DNA of 12,808 nt from a virus, in UHGV virus genome UHGV-1333727. One strand, given 5' to 3'. The translations under genes were made by a program, and so were the position numbers. The notes beneath the pieces are model-generated. The model made no database searches and had not been told where the DNA came from. It worked only from the letters and a program-made list of their open reading frames with translations. This document shows, piece after piece, positions 2,340-11,845 of the stretch (within the stretch, counting starts at the first letter, position 1; each line of letters begins with the position of its first letter).

Positions 2340-3008
2340 ATGTCTGAATTAATGGCGCTTAATGGGGCGAACGAAGTATTAACAATGTCTTCTCGTGAGA
2401 TCGCCAAGCTAACTGGTAAACGGCACGATCACATATTGAGAGACATTGACGCCATTGCCCCAAATTTGGGGGAATCAAGCAAATCAGTAACTTACAAAGG
2501 ATACAACAATCAAACACAGAGGGAATGGCTTTTAACTAAGCGTGACTCTTTGCTGGTTGTATCTGGCTATAGCGTTGAGTTACGTGCTCGCATCATCGAC
2601 CGCTGGCAGGAACTTGAAAAACGGGTACAGCAAAACGCCCCTGCAATTCCTCAAACATTAAGCGAAGCGTTGCGCCTTGCTGCCGATCTTGCTGAGGAAA
2701 AAGAACGGCTTGCACTGGTTAATAAGGAACTTGCGCCAAAAGCGGCTGTATGTGACGCGATAGTCAAAAACGATATGCACCGAACGGCTTCAGAGGTTGC
2801 TAAACCGCTGGGAATGTCAGCCGTAAAATTAAACAGAAAACTTTCGGCTGTTGGTGTTTACGATCTTCGCTGTCGCCGCCGTGTATTTAGTCAGTGGTTT
2901 ATTGATGAGGGCTACGGTGAAATGAGGGTAACTCACGATGGATATGAGCAGGCTGTATTCACTGCTAAAGGACAAGTATGGATCACTGAGCTTTTAACTT
3001 GTAACTAA
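2340..3008 (+). CDS. phage antirepressor, Rha-family N-terminal domain plus KilAC-type C-terminal domain (222 aa)
   Basis: ATG 2340 with GGAGA upstream. N-terminal ...LTMSSREIAKLTGKRHDHILRDIDAI... is the characteristic Rha regulatory-protein signature; C-terminal region resembles antirepressor KilAC domains. Assignment by recalled family signatures, not by search. Confidence 0.88.
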   Translation: MSELMALNGANEVLTMSSREIAKLTGKRHDHILRDIDAIAPNLGESSKSVTYKGYNNQTQREWLLTKRDSLLVVSGYSVELRARIIDRWQELEKRVQQNAPAIPQTLSEALRLAADLAEEKERLALVNKELAPKAAVCDAIVKNDMHRTASEVAKPLGMSAVKLNRKLSAVGVYDLRCRRRVFSQWFIDEGYGEMRVTHDGYEQAVFTAKGQVWITELLTCN

Positions 3009-5615: not shown

Positions 5616-5650
5616 ACCGGAAAGTTGACCGCTTTCTGGTGGCTGTTTTT
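5616..5650 (+). terminator. candidate intrinsic terminator/attenuator between helicase gene and nin-like operon
   Basis: ACCGGAAAG (5616-5624), loop TTGACCG, CTTTCTGGT (5632-5640, one G-U pair), then GGCTGTTTTTGTG. The U-tract is offset about 5 nt from the stem, so likely weak. Confidence 0.3.
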
Positions 5651-5674
5651 GTGCTTAAAACGAGGCGAAAAACA

Positions 5675-6232
5675 ATGAGCATTGAACTTGAAGCAAAAAT
5701 TATCAATATCCTTGAACTTGATGGCATCGACACAATGCACCAGTTACGCCAGAAAACAGGATTATCAGCGGAATATGACGAAGCCGGATGCTTACCTGAG
5801 ACAATTAAACACTTAATCGACACTGGTATTGTTGAGCGTGTATATACATATTTTGGACCGCGCCGCCGCTTGTTGGGGTATCGAATTAAATATTTGTATG
5901 CGCAACGGCGCGATCGTGTGGCGGCGTTATTTAGTGACTACAGCGTTAAAAAGCGTATGCGCGACATTAGCGCTGAAACGGGAATACCGTGGAATTATCT
6001 TTCTCGTACTATGCGTTTAATGGTGATTGATGAAACGCTTTGCGTTGATCCAAATAGGCACGGGGTTAATTTTTACTCACTGTTTAAACCTGGGCGATTC
6101 GGTCACGCTAATGATTTGGCGTTTGACTTTGACAGTCGTCTGAACGAATACCGGAAAAATAACGGCCTGCTACCGGATAAACCAGTATTTGAGATTGAAA
6201 AACTTAACGGCGAAACGGGGTTGGAATTATGA
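5675..6232 (+). CDS. hypothetical protein (185 aa), first gene of nin-like operon
   Basis: The ORF track starts at a GTG (5639) with no RBS; the ATG at 5675 has GAGG about 9 nt upstream and is preferred. Stop overlaps the next start (ATGA at 6229-6232). No recognisable motif. Confidence 0.75.
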   Translation: MSIELEAKIINILELDGIDTMHQLRQKTGLSAEYDEAGCLPETIKHLIDTGIVERVYTYFGPRRRLLGYRIKYLYAQRRDRVAALFSDYSVKKRMRDISAETGIPWNYLSRTMRLMVIDETLCVDPNRHGVNFYSLFKPGRFGHANDLAFDFDSRLNEYRKNNGLLPDKPVFEIEKLNGETGLEL

Positions 6233-6435
6233 GACGGGTAATTTTTTATTCAGTTGAAACGTTTGTTGACGAATCTCACTTTAAATTCGCATGCGATCCT
6301 TGCGGCACAATGGTTTATACGCCGCCACTAATGCGCAAGTATAAGCACGTAAAATTTAACCGGGCTTTTGTGCCGATTCGTTACGCTTTGCAGGCGTTGC
6401 GCGGTGAATTACGAAACACAATGCGGATTGTGTAA
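6229..6435 (+). CDS. hypothetical small protein (68 aa)
   Basis: ATG 6229 overlaps the upstream stop (ATGA), indicating translational coupling; contains a single CDPCG motif. Same-strand position inside the operon supports a real gene. Confidence 0.6.
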   Translation: MRRVIFYSVETFVDESHFKFACDPCGTMVYTPPLMRKYKHVKFNRAFVPIRYALQALRGELRNTMRIV

Positions 6436-6444
6436 GGGGCGACC

Positions 6445-6642
6445 ATGAATAGGGAATTAGATTTGACCGTGGAAGACTTAAGCACAATTGCGGAATACAT
6501 GCGCGGCGACGATCCTGATAAGCCTGTTGTTGTTGATATGAGGTACTTAAAAAGCGCTTTTATGACAAGCTCGCGCCTAATTTCTTTGCGGGCGATCATG
6601 TATGCGCGGGCACAGTGGAAAAATAGCAACGGTGTATCATGA
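6445..6642 (+). CDS. hypothetical small protein (65 aa)
   Basis: ATG 6445 with AAGGGG 5 nt upstream; its stop overlaps the ninB start (ATGA at 6639-6642). Confidence 0.6.
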   Translation: MNRELDLTVEDLSTIAEYMRGDDPDKPVVVDMRYLKSAFMTSSRLISLRAIMYARAQWKNSNGVS

Positions 6643-7070
6643 GGCAAATCAGATTTGAAATAGTAAACGACGCCGTAAAAGAAAACGCTATCAGGCAGAT
6701 AAGGGAGATCCAGCCTGATAGCAAAAGCCCGCTGGTAATTACCATCCAGGAGAAAACCCGCTCACTGAGTCAAAACAGCCTTTTATGGGCGCTATTAACA
6801 GACGTTAGCGATCAGGTTAATTGGTACGGTAAAAAGCTGTCACCGGAAGACTGGAAGGCGGTATTCACTGCCGGGCTTAAGAAATATGGCGTTGTCCCTA
6901 ATCTGGATAAATCCGGCTTTGTTGTGCTGGGAACGTCAACCAGCCGGATGAGTAAAACAGAATTTAGCGAATTAATTGAACTGATCTACTCGTTCGGCGC
7001 TGAACATAATGTTCAATGGTCTGGTGACACTAAGTTGAACGAGGAATTTATAAAACGCTGGGGGCAATAA
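6639..7070 (+). CDS. ninB: NinB-family recombination protein (lambda NinB/Orf homologue, 143 aa)
   Basis: Protein aligns by eye along its length with lambda NinB as recalled from memory: shared blocks ...VITIQE..RSL.QN.LW..L.DVS.QV.W.G..L..E.WK.VFTA.LK...VVPNL...GFVV.G.STSRM...EF.EL.ELI..FG.E..V.WS... Confidence 0.9.
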   Translation: MRQIRFEIVNDAVKENAIRQIREIQPDSKSPLVITIQEKTRSLSQNSLLWALLTDVSDQVNWYGKKLSPEDWKAVFTAGLKKYGVVPNLDKSGFVVLGTSTSRMSKTEFSELIELIYSFGAEHNVQWSGDTKLNEEFIKRWGQ

Positions 7071-7246
7071 TGGTTAGTTATTACATGGCTAAACCTACAG
7101 GCATTTTGTATAAGATTGATGGCGAATACGTTTATTATTTTCACAACCAGGCGCGTGATTGGCGATTGTGTCACGCGCACTTTAAGCACGAAATAGAAAA
7201 TCACCCTGAATATTTTATCAAAGTTGACAATGTAACTGTGGCGTAA
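7070..7246 (+). CDS. hypothetical small protein (58 aa, MVSYYMAKPTGILYKIDGEYVYYFHNQARDWRLCHAHFKHEIENHPEYFIKVDNVTVA)
   Basis: Found by manual translation (below ORF-track cut-off). ATG at 7070 overlaps the ninB stop (TAATG); stop TAA 7244-7246, 14 nt before the next gene's start. Confidence 0.5.
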   Translation: MVSYYMAKPTGILYKIDGEYVYYFHNQARDWRLCHAHFKHEIENHPEYFIKVDNVTVA

Positions 7247-7260
7247 TTGAGGATAAGCAA

Positions 7261-7920
7261 ATGAATAAACTTAAAGTAATTGGCGTGATTAGCCATCGCA
7301 CTAACCCTGAGTGTTACCCATCGTTTGAGGTAACAACATGCCGCACAGAATATAATTTTGGATCATACTATTTATTGGGTGTTCGCGCGGATGGCGGCAC
7401 TTATTCGGTTATGGCTGCAAGCTGGAAATTTGATAAATACGCTAATTTATCTAATAAGGATGATGACGGCATGAATAAAGAAAGTGAGATCATTGATGAA
7501 TTAATCGAAGATGAGCGGCATGATTGCGAAACGCAACCGGAAAAAACTGAATGGTTGGCAGGCGAAAAGCCTCCTGTTGGTGTGTGGCTTGATTGTGTAG
7601 GTCTTACGAGCGGAACGGTTCTCGATGTCGTTAAATTTAAATATGTTGGTGATAAATGGGCTATATGTGAAAGCAAGGAAGATTTAGGCTTAGAGAGGCC
7701 GATATCATGGACGACATGCGCTTTCAGGATTCATGTTGGTCCGATAGAAAAGGCGCTTGCTGAAATAGCGTTCGCACTTGCAACTAAGGTCATGGGTGAA
7801 GACGCGGCAAAAGAGATTGACTTTAAACGTGACAACGATTTTACGTGCGATTATCGCAATATGGCGCAAGCAATTATTGATGGATGTATCGGACACGTTG
7901 AATACACGGGGAAAAGATAA
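7261..7920 (+). CDS. hypothetical protein (219 aa), two regions separated by an acidic linker
   Basis: ATG 7261 with GAGGA 8 nt upstream; stop overlaps the downstream start (TAATG at 7918-7922). No recognisable catalytic motif. Confidence 0.8.
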   Translation: MNKLKVIGVISHRTNPECYPSFEVTTCRTEYNFGSYYLLGVRADGGTYSVMAASWKFDKYANLSNKDDDGMNKESEIIDELIEDERHDCETQPEKTEWLAGEKPPVGVWLDCVGLTSGTVLDVVKFKYVGDKWAICESKEDLGLERPISWTTCAFRIHVGPIEKALAEIAFALATKVMGEDAAKEIDFKRDNDFTCDYRNMAQAIIDGCIGHVEYTGKR

Positions 7921-8150
7921 TGGATAAGACGGCAACAATTCTTCTTAGTCGCCCTGCCATCTGCCGTATGCTTGGGGGAATTAGCAGGGGAACGTTCTAT
8001 TCATGGCGTAAAAAGTGGGAGGAAAACGGAACTCCATTCCCGGACCCTGTTGATGTGTTGGGGACCGGGCGGGGCGTCATGTACCGCTATCAGGAGGTGA
8101 TGCGGTTCTTTGATAAGATCGGATTAACGCCAGCCAGGGATAAGACGTAA
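7920..8150 (+). CDS. AlpA-family (MerR-like) small DNA-binding protein, probable excisionase/integrase regulator (76 aa)
   Basis: ATG 7920 with GGGGA upstream. ...LLSRPAICRMLGGISRGTFYSWRKKWEENGTPFPDPVDVLGTGRGVMYRYQEVMRFFD fits the AlpA/Xis pattern (HTH followed by 'FP.P...G.R...W...EV..W'); it sits next to an integrase. Confidence 0.8.
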   Translation: MDKTATILLSRPAICRMLGGISRGTFYSWRKKWEENGTPFPDPVDVLGTGRGVMYRYQEVMRFFDKIGLTPARDKT

Positions 8151-9304
8151 TCCGCAAATTTATTTAACGCCTCCTTTTGTTCATCAAGATAATCATATTT
8201 GTCGTACACTGCCAGTATTCCCCTGAGTGAATGGCCTAATACCTTTTCCGCGACATGTACCGGAACACCTATAGCTGAAAGGTGTGTACGGCACGTCCTG
8301 CGGAGGTCGTGACAGGACCATGATTTGCCTCCCATCCTTTTACGCACGAAGATTGCAGCTACTTTTATCACTGATGCGTTTACTGGTCTGTTCCCTCCGT
8401 TAATCACTGGCGGGAACACATAATCATACTCATGGGAGGATAATACCTCCCTGAGCATTTTTATCGACAAATCTGATAATCCACGCCTGATTTCACTTCT
8501 TGTCTTCGCCACCGCCGCCGGGACGGTCCATACTCCGTTGTCCAGGTCGAGGTGTTCCCTTCTCATTTTCTGCAACTCCCCCACCCTGCACCCGGTTAGC
8601 AATAATAGCTTTAATGCTATCTTGTTCTGACGGTAGATCTGCGAATCATCCACCGTTCGCCAGAAATGGCCTATTTCATCGCACGATAAATAACGCTCGC
8701 CAACCGCATAATTTTCGCCTACGTCAACAACCCTGATATTGTTTATCGCTGTACTGGTCATTAGCCCGCGCCGGATAGCGCTGTTCACAACAATCTTCAT
8801 TCGCTTGAGTATCAGCCCAGCCGTAACCGCGTGGCCCGCCGCAGTGATCTCGCCGAATATGTCCATCCATTGTTTAGTGCTGACATCATCGGCAATATAC
8901 TCACCGAATTTATCGACAACATGGCGCTTAAGCGCGCTCCTGACGTCATTATATGCAACCAGCTTAATAACGTTCGGCAGGGATAAATAGTCACTCACAA
9001 TGGCGCTTATTGTTAATTTGCCACGCTCAATATTTATCGCTTGCTTTACTGAAACAGTTGGGTTTTTCCCCTTCGCTAATAGCTCTTTGTATTCTGCCAC
9101 CGCGTAGCGTGCATCTTTCAATGTCATACTGCCGTAATCGCCAATCTTCATCCTTACAGGCTTACCGTTGAACCTGTACCTGAACTGGAAAATAATTTTC
9201 CCCTTCGGGCTTATCCTGGCAGACAAGCCGTCGCGATCCGCTATCTCGTTCGGGCCGTCATATGGCTTGTTTGCTATTGCGCGTAATTTCGTATCCGTCA
9301 GCAT
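8090..9304 (-). CDS. int: tyrosine recombinase / integrase, P4-type (404 aa)
   Basis: ATG at 9304 (minus) with AGAGG 7 nt upstream. N-terminal LTDTKLRAIANKP...GLSARISPKGKIIFQFRYRFNGKPVRMKIGDY is the P4-type integrase arm-binding N-domain; catalytic region has ...TGCRVGE (Arg), HDLRRT (H-x-x-R) and ...GHSLRGILAVYDKYDY (His...Tyr). Confidence 0.95.
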   Translation of the reverse strand: MLTDTKLRAIANKPYDGPNEIADRDGLSARISPKGKIIFQFRYRFNGKPVRMKIGDYGSMTLKDARYAVAEYKELLAKGKNPTVSVKQAINIERGKLTISAIVSDYLSLPNVIKLVAYNDVRSALKRHVVDKFGEYIADDVSTKQWMDIFGEITAAGHAVTAGLILKRMKIVVNSAIRRGLMTSTAINNIRVVDVGENYAVGERYLSCDEIGHFWRTVDDSQIYRQNKIALKLLLLTGCRVGELQKMRREHLDLDNGVWTVPAAVAKTRSEIRRGLSDLSIKMLREVLSSHEYDYVFPPVINGGNRPVNASVIKVAAIFVRKRMGGKSWSCHDLRRTCRTHLSAIGVPVHVAEKVLGHSLRGILAVYDKYDYLDEQKEALNKFADYVLSLAGVNPILSKNRITS

Positions 9305-9320
9305 TCTGATACCTCTTTTT

Positions 9321-9342
9321 TTTGGTCACGATTTGGTACACA
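9321..9342. repeat. 22-bp direct repeat, copy 1 (TTTGGTCACGATTTGGTACACA)
   Basis: Matches copy 2 at 9562-9583 at 21 of 22 positions; contains GGTCACGAT. Confidence 0.7.
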
Positions 9343-9350
9343 GTTTTATC

Positions 9351-9472
9351 TGAACGGATATTAACACCATTGAACGGATTTAAACACACGACAGGATGAT
9401 TGAGATGTAACTTAGTGAATTTAAATGATATTTTTTATCAACCGTGAACGAGTCTGAACGGGATTGAACACC
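9351..9472. repeat. cluster of five TGAAC(G)-type iteron-like motifs
   Basis: TGAACGGATATTAACACC (9351-9368) and TGAACGGATTTAAACACA (9371-9388) are 20 bp apart; TGAACGAG (9445), TGAACGGGA (9455) and TGAACACC (9465) are phased at exactly 10 bp. Confidence 0.6.
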
Positions 9473-9561
9473 ACGAATCGTTACTGTCTGGAATGGTTAG
9501 CTTTGTGAATAATAATTTATAAAACAGTATGTTGCAGTGCTTTTGTTTTTGGTTTTGGGTA

Positions 9562-9583
9562 TTTGGTCACTATTTGGTACACA
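9562..9583. repeat. 22-bp direct repeat, copy 2 (TTTGGTCACTATTTGGTACACA), preceded by phased TTTGG tracts
   Basis: Copy of 9321-9342 with one mismatch; contains GGTCACTAT. Immediately upstream, TTTTTGG / TTTTGGG / ATTTGGT recur at roughly 8-10-bp spacing (9545-9580). Confidence 0.7.
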
Positions 9584-9608
9584 AAAAGAAACGAGGCGTT
9601 AGCCTCGT
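9583..9608 (-). terminator. rho-independent terminator of tail-fibre gene
   Basis: On the minus strand: stem ACGAGGC, loop TAAC, stem GCCTCGT (plus 9591-9608), followed by UUCUUUUU (plus 9583-9590), about 35 nt after the stop at 9641-9643. Confidence 0.6.
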
Positions 9609-9640
9609 TTCGCGCGGCGATGTTCTTCGCACATCACCTC

Positions 9641-11845
9641 TTATTCTTCGCTTCCGGTCAACTGACTGATAAGCGCTTCAAGTTTTGCTATCCGCTCATC
9701 CATTGCGGCAATGTTAGCTTTCAGGCTTGCGTTCTCCTCTTCCAGTTCGGTGACGCGGTTATCCGTTTCGCGTGCCACCTGGACAAGTAAACCAGTCACC
9801 GCCGCATAGTCAACATTAAGGTAACGTGTTTCTTCTCGTAGCTCGTTGCCGTCAACGGTCGGACCCTGCAATTCTTCACCGTAACGAGTAAACGATCCTA
9901 CGGCTTCCGGTAGCGCCTCCATTACTTCCTGTGCAATAACGCCAGCATAAGGAAGGCCGTTTTCCTTGAGCGTGTAGGTGTACCCGTTCATTTTGCGGAT
10001 TAATTCAGTGGCTTCACCTATAACCTGAATGTTATCTTTAAGGTCGCGGTCAGATGATTGGTGAAGTGTCTGGCATGTGATATTACCGCTAACTTCTGCG
10101 GTGGCGCTTTTAATCTTATACTCTACTGAGAGATCACGGACTTCAACCCTCCCATCGTGGCGAACAATAAGATCACCGTTTGTTTCACCTTTTGCGTTTT
10201 TAGCCCTGATGTGAACTTCTCCAAGCGTATCAGTATTTGTAGGCGCAAAAATAACGCCGCGTTCCGACTGATCCTCATTTTGGAACCATACATGGGCGGT
10301 TCCACTTTTTGAACGCAGGTATAGTGAAGGTGTTGCTTTAGTGATCGACAGATCACCTGACATAATGTCGCCGGATTTTTTCACCTGCGCATCGTTAGTT
10401 ACGTTACCAAGTCCAACATCCGATTTCGACGGCTTGTATTTGGTTCCGTATAGCTCATTTATGTTAAAAGTACCATTGTTGAGTCTATTATCGTTACTAG
10501 AGTAAATCTTTACTCTACCGCTTTCGTAATCGATATTAATAGCTGACCACGTATCGCCGCACCGCGAGAATATACCAGAACCGTGGCTGAAAATTGTTGA
10601 TTCGCTACCTGTTGGTTTTCCTGACCTCCAGAAACACCCACCTTTCGCCCTTAGCTCTTGTAGTAGTTCCTTATCGGTCATTTTACCATCCAAAGTAAGA
10701 CCGCTACCGCCAAGACCAAAAGCGCCTATAAGCATAGCATTAGAAAGGCCTAAATCTGCTTTAGTAGGTTTGTTTACCTGGTCGTAAATCCTTGCTGCTG
10801 GGCTTTCAATAAATCCTGAAGGTGCATTGTCTTGTTTAACAAATCCTTCAGGAATGTATAATTCCGTGTTGCCAGTCTGCGCCAGCACCGCTACTTTTGT
10901 GCCTTGAATATAAGATCGCTGGTAGCACCAGACCTCGATATAGCCGTCACCTTTAACCAGGCCGTAACGCATTTGACTATTATTGGGAAGGTTTGGTGAA
11001 CCGAGTCGGCGAATACTTAAAAATTTAGATATATTTTCACTGGTTACTTCGCCTGTGTCGTTAAGATCTCGAGCGGAGATCTCTATAAAGTCAATATTCC
11101 CGTAACTTAAACCGTAGCCACCGCCATTTGTAACCATTAGCGTTAAGTGGCACTCTGAAAACTTTGGATCGCTAAGTTTAGCAATCTTAACGTAAGCGCC
11201 ATTACCGCTAGTATTAACAGGCCAAGCACATTGGACCATTGGGCTGGTAAGCCTTCCCATTTGATTCAGATATTTTTGCGCCCTGTTCTCTGATGTTTTG
11301 GCGTTGGTTTCGCTTGTTTTCGCTGCCGTCTCACTTGCCTTAGCGTTGGTTTCTGATGTTTTCGCTGCCGTGGCGGATTTTGCAGCCGCTGTTTTTGACG
11401 CTTCTGCTGCGTTTTTGTCGGATCCTGTTTTTTGAGCGTTGGCGGTTGATTTGGCTGTCTCTGCGCGAATGTTGGTAAGAAGCTGATCCAACTGACCTTC
11501 GCCGCCAAAATCCTCCCACCACTCGACAGCGGCGGCGATCTCTGTTTCCTTGCCCTGGTAGTAACGCAGGGTTTCAGCCACATCCTGAGCAAGCCCATCA
11601 ACTGAGATCGAGTCAGATAGCAGGATGCTGAATTTTGTCCCGGCAGGGATGGCGGGGTTAGCCGCTGGCGTCACTGACAGTTCAGTGCCGCTTTTAATTT
11701 CTGTGATGGTAAAGATCTGTACCGGATTGCCAACAGCAATGAGCGTGCAACCTACACGAATAAGAGAAAGCGGCGCGGAAAAGTTTGTTCCCGTGCCTGT
11801 AACAGTATTGCCGTTGATGGCAATTGTTCCAGTTGTGTAAATCAT
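9641..11845 (-). CDS. phage tail fibre protein with Stf-like Ala/Lys/Thr/Ser repeat region and C-terminal intramolecular chaperone (peptidase S74-like) auto-processing domain (734 aa)
   Basis: ATG 11845 (minus) with GGAG upstream. Residues about 125-190 carry AAKTSETNAK-type repeats like those in lambdoid side tail fibres. C-terminal ~140 aa (...SSDRDLKDNIQVIGEATELIRKMNGYTYTLKENGLPYAGVIAQEV... then coiled coil) match the endosialidase-type chaperone domain with the Ser...Lys (S-x4-K) dyad. Confidence 0.9.
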   Translation of the reverse strand: MIYTTGTIAINGNTVTGTGTNFSAPLSLIRVGCTLIAVGNPVQIFTITEIKSGTELSVTPAANPAIPAGTKFSILLSDSISVDGLAQDVAETLRYYQGKETEIAAAVEWWEDFGGEGQLDQLLTNIRAETAKSTANAQKTGSDKNAAEASKTAAAKSATAAKTSETNAKASETAAKTSETNAKTSENRAQKYLNQMGRLTSPMVQCAWPVNTSGNGAYVKIAKLSDPKFSECHLTLMVTNGGGYGLSYGNIDFIEISARDLNDTGEVTSENISKFLSIRRLGSPNLPNNSQMRYGLVKGDGYIEVWCYQRSYIQGTKVAVLAQTGNTELYIPEGFVKQDNAPSGFIESPAARIYDQVNKPTKADLGLSNAMLIGAFGLGGSGLTLDGKMTDKELLQELRAKGGCFWRSGKPTGSESTIFSHGSGIFSRCGDTWSAINIDYESGRVKIYSSNDNRLNNGTFNINELYGTKYKPSKSDVGLGNVTNDAQVKKSGDIMSGDLSITKATPSLYLRSKSGTAHVWFQNEDQSERGVIFAPTNTDTLGEVHIRAKNAKGETNGDLIVRHDGRVEVRDLSVEYKIKSATAEVSGNITCQTLHQSSDRDLKDNIQVIGEATELIRKMNGYTYTLKENGLPYAGVIAQEVMEALPEAVGSFTRYGEELQGPTVDGNELREETRYLNVDYAAVTGLLVQVARETDNRVTELEEENASLKANIAAMDERIAKLEALISQLTGSEE

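Follow-up and report, generated by a model that had tools for sequence, protein, structure and literature searches.

The mEpimmI (mEp021-like) coliphages have been described as non-lambdoid phages that depend on Nus factors and are common in the human gut, and their integrases are reported to have a conserved N-terminal DNA-binding domain in common (PMC11893012). The 12,808-nucleotide stretch of the virus genome UHGV-1333727 analyzed here (hereafter, the window) derives from a temperate phage of this group: its early region aligns to mEp021-group genomes at ~90%, and its arrangement is that of a non-integrated phage because the integrase gene, an attP-like repeat region, and the tail-fiber genes stand in succession. 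We analyzed the open reading frame (ORF) at positions 7261..7920 (+ strand) of the window, denoted gene X throughout, which starts with ATG, encodes 219 amino acids (aa), and is a homolog of mEp021_03 (AXN54122.1), annotated “hypothetical protein.” The counterpart of gene X is neither discussed in the paper on the mEpimmI phages nor mentioned in its supplementary files (PMC11893012). The equivalent map position in lambdoid and P22-like phages, at the end of an early operon and just 5' of the excision gene, is held by accessory “ea” and “nin” ORFs; unlike many of these, gene X is never missing from its own phage group. In phage Oslo, EaA lies upstream of a homologous pair of helix-turn-helix (HTH) and integrase (int) genes, with a small 37-aa ORF between EaA and the HTH gene; EaA showed no homology to gene X (hhalign probability 0.4%).

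Gene X is a real, well-defined early gene that is always present in the mEp021 group and constitutes an orphan family. Its ATG is preceded, at a distance of 7 nucleotides (nt), by the Shine-Dalgarno sequence GAGGA (7249..7253, + strand, read from the sequence), and the final base of its TAA (7918-7920) is also the first base of the ATG (7920-7922) that opens the ORF at 7920..8150, here called the HTH gene, in a TAATG stop/start overlap (7918..7922, + strand). The ORF, the good ribosome-binding site, and the coupling to the next gene had all been called in a first-pass annotation of the window, made from the letters without database searches, and were confirmed in every detail; the ORF-list translation contains exactly the quoted ...DDDGMNKESEIIDELIEDERHDCETQPEK.... 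The GAGGA site is kept where the N-terminus is of the MNK/MSE type; in alleles of the other N-terminal type, the start codon directly follows the stop codon of the upstream ORF, behind GGTGG. The overlap, TAATG or TGATG, is retained in nearly all related loci and also behind a natural 127-aa short form of the gene. Gene X is more than a chance ORF because it has more than 400 homologous clusters of 215-220 aa, because the proportion of nonsynonymous differences (pN) is below that of synonymous differences (pS) in every part (35 distinct alleles, the set used for all codon analysis), and because the stop/start overlap is conserved.

Syntenic homologs were found in seven phages of the group, with identities of 87% (mEp554), 86% (mEp010 and mEp044), 67% (mEp021 and mEp515), 58% (MagusPhagus), and 55% (mEp013), all annotated “hypothetical protein” only. 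mEp021_03 and its six counterparts occupy the same slot, flanked by NinB plus a small ORF on one side and by the HTH-int pair on the other, and all show this stop/start coupling; compared with these seven, the window allele has its own combination of N-terminal and middle domain types. When relatives were collected via NinB (94-98% identical), that is, independently of gene X, gene X was found directly downstream in all 41 evaluable loci, always in the same slot.

AlphaFold models of the protein were built from 32 (model 1) and 90 (model 2) sequences; in model 1, the C-terminal half alone was modeled, and model 2 has a mean predicted local distance difference test (pLDDT) score of 76.8. According to these models, the protein is modular: an N-terminal beta domain, an acidic segment not packed on the folded parts, and a second barrel followed by three helices. 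The small N-terminal domain (residues 1-62; 7261..7446, + strand; pLDDT 75-88 in model 2) has six predicted strands (8-12, 22-24, 28-32, 35-42, 47-51, and 55-59). The acidic segment (residues 64-91, SNKDDDGMNKESEIIDELIEDERHDCET; 7450..7533, + strand) is predicted to be disordered or a free helix, with pLDDT below 50 in both models. The middle domain (residues 98-158; 7552..7734, + strand), as predicted, qualifies as a five-strand small beta-barrel. The conserved C-terminal part (7735..7917, + strand; median identity 88%) consists of helices 161-178, 180-184, and 195-207 in model 2 and contains the invariant residues A170, L173, A174, D181, A182, F188, D197, R199, M201, A202, I205, G208, Y215, and G217. 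The barrels were compared with the SH3/Tudor/KOW/Sm class, including the Spt5 KOW domain (5ohq), Bacillus subtilis YfhH (1sf9), the C-terminal Tudor domain of UvrD/PcrA (7egs/5dma), and the lipoprotein 3bdu; identities were 2-24% and no family stood out. The resemblance is one of fold class only, from which no function can be assigned. The KOW, Sm/Hfq, Tudor, SH3, and WYL models of Pfam were not matched by any of the 90 members at E values up to 5. Both the N-terminal and the middle domain are small beta domains, and an internal duplication was considered as their source, but it is not supported by sequence (hhalign probability below 1%).

The stretch between the two beta domains (DDDGMNKESEIIDELIEDERHDC), which the first-pass annotation had treated as a linker, is the best-conserved part of the protein in both the 32- and the 90-member alignments. 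All segments of gene X are under purifying selection, the acidic segment most strongly: pN/pS is 0.048/0.44 for residues 67-92, versus 0.11/0.46 for the C-terminal part, 0.26/0.48 for the N-terminal domain, and 0.36/0.64 for the middle domain. Residues D67, D69, M71-E74, E76, D79, and L81-E85 are invariant; the 31 residues from 67 to 97 include 14 Asp/Glu versus 3 Lys/Arg, and I77, I78, L81, and I82 would line up as a single hydrophobic stripe if the segment were helical (helical-wheel angles). The constraint applies to the amino acids and does not reflect a DNA or RNA signal or recent homogenization, because synonymous codon variants are frequent within the stretch and no Rfam family matches it; the pS of 0.44, equal to that in the rest of the gene, likewise led us to reject a DNA- or RNA-level element and recent recombination as the source of the conservation. 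The notion of a mere linker thus gives way to that of a region that, judged by selection, is the functional core of the protein. The sequence AAGGA precedes the invariant M71, a possible internal start; at Lys66, 27 of the 35 alleles have AAG and 4 have AAA, 3 encode another residue, and 1 has a gap. In a separate observation, a 78-aa fragment on a truncated contig (P0127), recovered in a profile search, carries the invariant acidic segment behind a wholly different N-terminus (MEEVCDIYTIDNDDYILLDSIIYEQEKYLLLSKK...), perhaps a fourth type of N-terminal module.

A different pattern holds for the two beta domains: their alleles are old, and recombination shuffles them independently of one another and of the neighboring genes. 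The N-terminal domain comes in three types and the hypervariable middle domain in at least seven, all strongly diverged, and these types combine freely with each other and with three types of the downstream HTH gene. Within the types, the ratio of nonsynonymous to synonymous substitution rates (dN/dS) is 0.22-0.27, which shows that each allele is functional. Among the NinB-collected relatives, median identity is 97% for NinB, 93% for the C-terminus of DnaB, and 73% for gene X, within which it ranges from 90% in the acidic segment to 59% in the middle domain (minimum 33%). The 127-aa short form, represented by five clusters, joins an N-type domain straight to the C-terminal helices and occupies the same slot with the same HTH overlap; its existence shows that the parts are separable modules.

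Outside the group, gene X has no recognizable relatives. The protein matched nothing in Pfam, PHROGs, NCBIfam, or PADLOC; the PADLOC-DB profiles of anti-phage defense gave no match at E values up to 1, a Pfam scan of all 90 aligned members yielded no consistent weak match, and searches of Protein Data Bank (PDB) sequences, with the single protein and with the profile, reached a best E value of 0.2, which is meaningless. The earlier statement that the protein has no assignable motif is therefore upheld, in the sense that no characterized family in these collections matches it. A word-indexed protein search returned 422 clusters, and every source-named one is a “hypothetical protein” of Escherichia coli, Shigella, or an uncultured Caudoviricetes phage; an exhaustive hidden Markov model (HMM) profile search of 1.84 billion representative proteins returned 9 clusters, all of the gene X family. 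Gene X is absent from the 185,579 species-representative genomes that were scanned and is present in 35 of 5,426 complete E. coli genomes, in a single chromosomal copy each. A tblastn search of phages with the acidic motif alone matched the same seven phages only. By these searches, the family is confined to one coliphage group, mEp021, and it is shallow, with an effective number of sequences (Neff) of ~1.9.

We propose, with low confidence, that gene X encodes a binding or adaptor protein, in which the acidic motif would dock a conserved partner and the barrels would confer specificity. Gene X belongs to the long early rightward operon, which also carries the replication genes, and is translationally coupled to the gene for the probable excision HTH protein; its product is expected to be soluble and to act by binding macromolecules, not by catalysis. 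This proposal is favored by the finding that no enzyme family, catalytic motif, or defense-system model matches gene X, and also by its constant presence in the early operon, the predicted architecture, the strong constraint on the acidic segment, and the variable, reassorting, yet functional barrels. The acidic segment, with its I-I-x-x-L-I patch, could serve as a short docking motif or as a nucleic-acid-like decoy for the conserved partner, most likely a host DNA- or RNA-binding protein, and the interchangeable barrels could supply specificity toward a feature that is not the same in all hosts or co-resident phages. Gene X would thus be an accessory factor of host interaction or conflict, outside the core machinery of replication and integration, and the extreme variability of the barrels is compatible with such a role.

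Acidic decoys and docking segments are found in the anti-restriction DNA mimics T7 Ocr and ArdA, in the acidic tail of SSB, and in the acidic disordered tail of the antitoxin MazE. By analogy with these, the gene X segment is short, acidic, probably unstructured, interspersed with a few hydrophobic residues, and conserved far beyond its surroundings. The analogy does not extend to sequence, given that no similarity to Ocr, ArdA, or the SSB and MazE tails was found in the family and PDB searches. Ocr and ArdA mimic DNA by their whole folded surface, unlike the 28-residue segment of gene X, and there is neither a toxin partner nor a restriction context here.

Several observations weigh against a docking and specificity function. 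The variability of the barrels could result from weak constraint on a scaffold combined with recombination, without any role in specificity. A housekeeping role in the phage life cycle would account equally well for a gene that the whole group carries and that is tightly coupled to the gene for excision. The acidic segment is missing from the short form and accordingly is not indispensable in every phage. Remote homology to a characterized family might have been missed because the family is so shallow. Finally, an analysis of allele association within 10 kb on either side of gene X identified no partner gene, bar one weak link, between the middle-domain types and a 98-aa gene ~6.9 kb upstream (adjusted mutual information [AMI] 0.31, reached in 0 of 2,000 naive permutations). 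The genes between the two show no association with the middle-domain types, and the link probably reflects clade structure; yet the 98-aa gene is the sole candidate partner seen. This gene (loci L095-L135), located near position 400 of the window and near the immunity region, looks winged-helix-like by eye and has four allele types.

A more far-reaching version of the proposed binding function is that gene X is the first of a new class of polymorphic phage conflict genes, combining an invariant acidic docking or decoy motif with interchangeable barrels, in which the alleles would be under diversifying selection and each phage would neutralize, or be recognized by, a different strain-specific host defense or product of a co-resident prophage; we regard this as unlikely. 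If gene X does encode a binding protein of the kind proposed, it would mark the point of greatest difference between the early regions of otherwise near-identical gut coliphages, and thus the target of selection for specificity; allelic differences might underlie those in host range, defense evasion, and inter-phage interference within the mEp021 group, and the invariant acidic motif would point to a conserved host target. The present gain is a clean map of domains, with metal binding and cargo status unsupported, and homology-based annotation can go no further. The novelty of gene X consists in the lack of relatives and matching families and is not that of a demonstrated new mechanism. Orphan early genes are common in phages; the invariant acidic motif combined with hypervariable barrels is the one feature that deserves experiment.

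An alternative role is suggested by the genes downstream. The HTH gene (7920..8150, + strand) encodes a 76-aa protein that matches Pfam HTH_23 (E = 4.8e-7; 29.8 bits, above the cut-off), with HTH_28 next, and overlaps the 3' end of int, which is convergent, by 61 nt. It had been labeled AlpA-like, which is a loose label: HTH_17 scored E = 0.057 (14.1 bits against a cut-off of 27), and Phage_AlpA is not listed among the Pfam matches. The HTH protein also matches phrog_4745, “DNA binding protein” (E = 2.2e-10), and, weakly, excisionase PHROGs and Xis_Gifsy_1. It is probably an excisionase-type directionality factor, a role that suits a small HTH protein whose gene overlaps the 3' end of int. The int gene (8090..9304, - strand) encodes a tyrosine integrase with an arm-type DNA-binding domain (Pfam Phage_integrase, E = 1.3e-21; Arm-DNA-bind_3, E = 1.3e-20; phrog_1). 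The 61-nt convergent overlap covers 8090-8150, and a weak terminator-like hairpin (minus strand, 8042-8027) lies inside the HTH gene just past the stop codon of int; the hairpin may end int transcripts, and the arrangement may allow antisense interference between the excision and integration genes.

Given this context, gene X could encode an accessory subunit or regulator of site-specific recombination, made stoichiometrically with the HTH factor and modulating excision, for instance by binding that factor or the conserved N-terminal domain with which the integrase contacts arm sites. The conservation of the stop/start overlap in nearly all loci, even behind the short form, the invariable position immediately before the HTH-int pair, the conserved C-terminal helical part, and the DNA-binding domain shared by the integrases of the group (PMC11893012) are all in line with such a role, which we nevertheless judge improbable. 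The gene X types do not track those of the HTH gene and the integrase (AMI of 0.03 and 0.02 for the middle domain and 0.23 for the N-terminal domain), and phages with type I and type II integrases (Table 2 of PMC11893012) carry nearly the same gene X. HTH homologs also abut int in two phages that lack gene X, Salmonella phage Oslo and Proteus phage Pm34. No DNA-binding motif is recognizable in gene X, which matched no HTH or Xis model in Pfam, PHROGs, or NCBIfam and thus is not excisionase-like by family or by co-variation.

Another explanation, in our view of doubtful standing, is that the gene X protein binds RNA, single-stranded DNA, or RNA polymerase via Sm/KOW/Tudor-like barrels and regulates early expression or recombination together with NinB and Nus-dependent antitermination. 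In favor of this are the location of gene X beside NinB in the early operon and the Nus dependence of the phage group (PMC11893012). The argument from the barrels goes no further than fold class, though, with the KOW, Sm, and Tudor models unmatched, even weakly, by any of the 90 members; moreover, variable barrel surfaces fit a conserved nucleic acid or polymerase target poorly, and the protein is acidic, with an isoelectric point (pI) of 4.8.

The first-pass annotation had pointed to a typical location for cargo genes, at the boundary between a nin-like operon and the integration module. The position itself is borne out, with NinB on the 5' side and the convergent tyrosine integrase on the 3' side; the cargo status is not. 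Absence of the ORF from syntenic relatives was specifically looked for, and gene X was present in every one of the 41 loci described above; its G+C content (0.423) is similar to that of the adjacent genes (0.38-0.45), the gap from the preceding ORF is 14 nt, and consensus scans, the only kind made, detected no promoter-like site at 6400-8160 (+ strand) and no terminator-like site flanking the gene. Gene X is therefore a fixed gene of the phage group and not a sporadic insert. A classic moron, horizontally acquired, self-expressed from the prophage, and beneficial to the lysogen, would be at home at a module boundary, a place that holds accessory genes in other phages (EaA in phage Oslo, for example), and strong variability between alleles might be expected of it; nonetheless, considering the features listed above and that gene X was not found outside the mEp021 group in genome, phage, or profile searches, we find this explanation highly unlikely.

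The slot just upstream of gene X does vary. In most phages, it holds a 58-aa ORF of unassigned function (7070..7246 of the window, + strand, from the ORF list), directly 5' of gene X, which is annotated in mEp554, mEp013, and MagusPhagus and has a median identity of 93% among relatives. In one relative (locus L136), whose gene X is the short form, a 246-aa gene has been inserted after NinB in place of this ORF, a point that would favor the moron explanation. The 246-aa gene shows no homology to gene X and may be Rha/KilAC-like, as read from the sequence without a family search.

Metal binding, which the first-pass annotation had raised by noting two Cys/His-containing regions, is the weakest of the explanations. 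The window allele has 8 Cys and 4 His, of which H12 alone is invariant across the 90 members, with C89, C209, and H212 kept in 94%, 90%, and 88%, respectively; C18, C27, C136, and C153 are I, F, A, or Y in most members, and the other Cys/His positions are mostly I, F, Y, A, or R in relatives, which suggests that the variable Cys positions are buried hydrophobic ones. Of 219 family proteins, 182 contain the relaxed pattern [DNE]xDxDG, and residues D67, D69, G70, and E76 vary little or not at all. Coordination of Zn by Cys/His, or of Ca or Mg by the acidic N/E-x-D-x-D-G...E stretch as an EF-hand-type-like loop followed by a helix, is nevertheless very improbable, because most Cys/His positions are replaced, the conserved ones are spread over three domains with no compact CxxC, HxxH, or CxxH ligand cluster in the 90 members, the strict EF-hand (PROSITE PS00018), DxDxDG, and Excalibur (DxDxDGxxCE) patterns match 0 of the 219 proteins, and no metal-binding Pfam family was matched.

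The remaining features of the window belong to the early operon and to the region beyond int. Upstream of the 58-aa ORF lies the gene for the NinB/Orf recombination mediator (6639..7070, + strand; Pfam NinB, E = 2.7e-46). Further upstream, the early gene at 5639-6232 encodes 197 aa without a Pfam match; among PHROGs, its product weakly matches a MarR-type regulator (E = 2e-7) and a Ren-like exclusion protein (E = 4e-4). With identity down to 33% in some relatives, it is a second variable early gene. An antirepressor-type protein is encoded at 2340-3008, with Rha and KilAC (ANT) domains (Pfam Phage_pRha, E = 3.6e-17; ANT, E = 2.2e-11). The ORF at 441-2258 (605 aa) contains an HNH_3 endonuclease domain (residues 127-167) and a C-terminal half that is Lys/Glu/Gln-rich and coiled-coil-like by eye; this part of the operon is variable, and relatives hold an O-like replication protein, a zinc-ribbon protein, or a homing endonuclease in its place.

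On the other side of int, the gene at 9641-11845 (- strand) encodes a 734-aa tail-fiber protein whose C-terminus carries an intramolecular chaperone domain, Peptidase_S74. Short DNA stretches of this gene are 84-92% identical to side or L-shaped tail-fiber genes of the unrelated phages Ayreon, mEp460, and T5, similarities that indicate mosaic exchange of receptor-binding parts. Between int and the tail-fiber genes lies the attP-like region (9311-9611), in which four arm-type-like repeats, TGAACGG(A/G)(T/A), at 9351-9479 are bracketed by a 22-nt direct repeat, TTTGGTCAC(G/T)ATTTGGTACACA, at 9321-9342 and 9562-9583. Beyond these repeats, a perfect 10-bp hairpin followed by a T-run (minus strand, 9611-9588) is probably the terminator of the tail-fiber operon.
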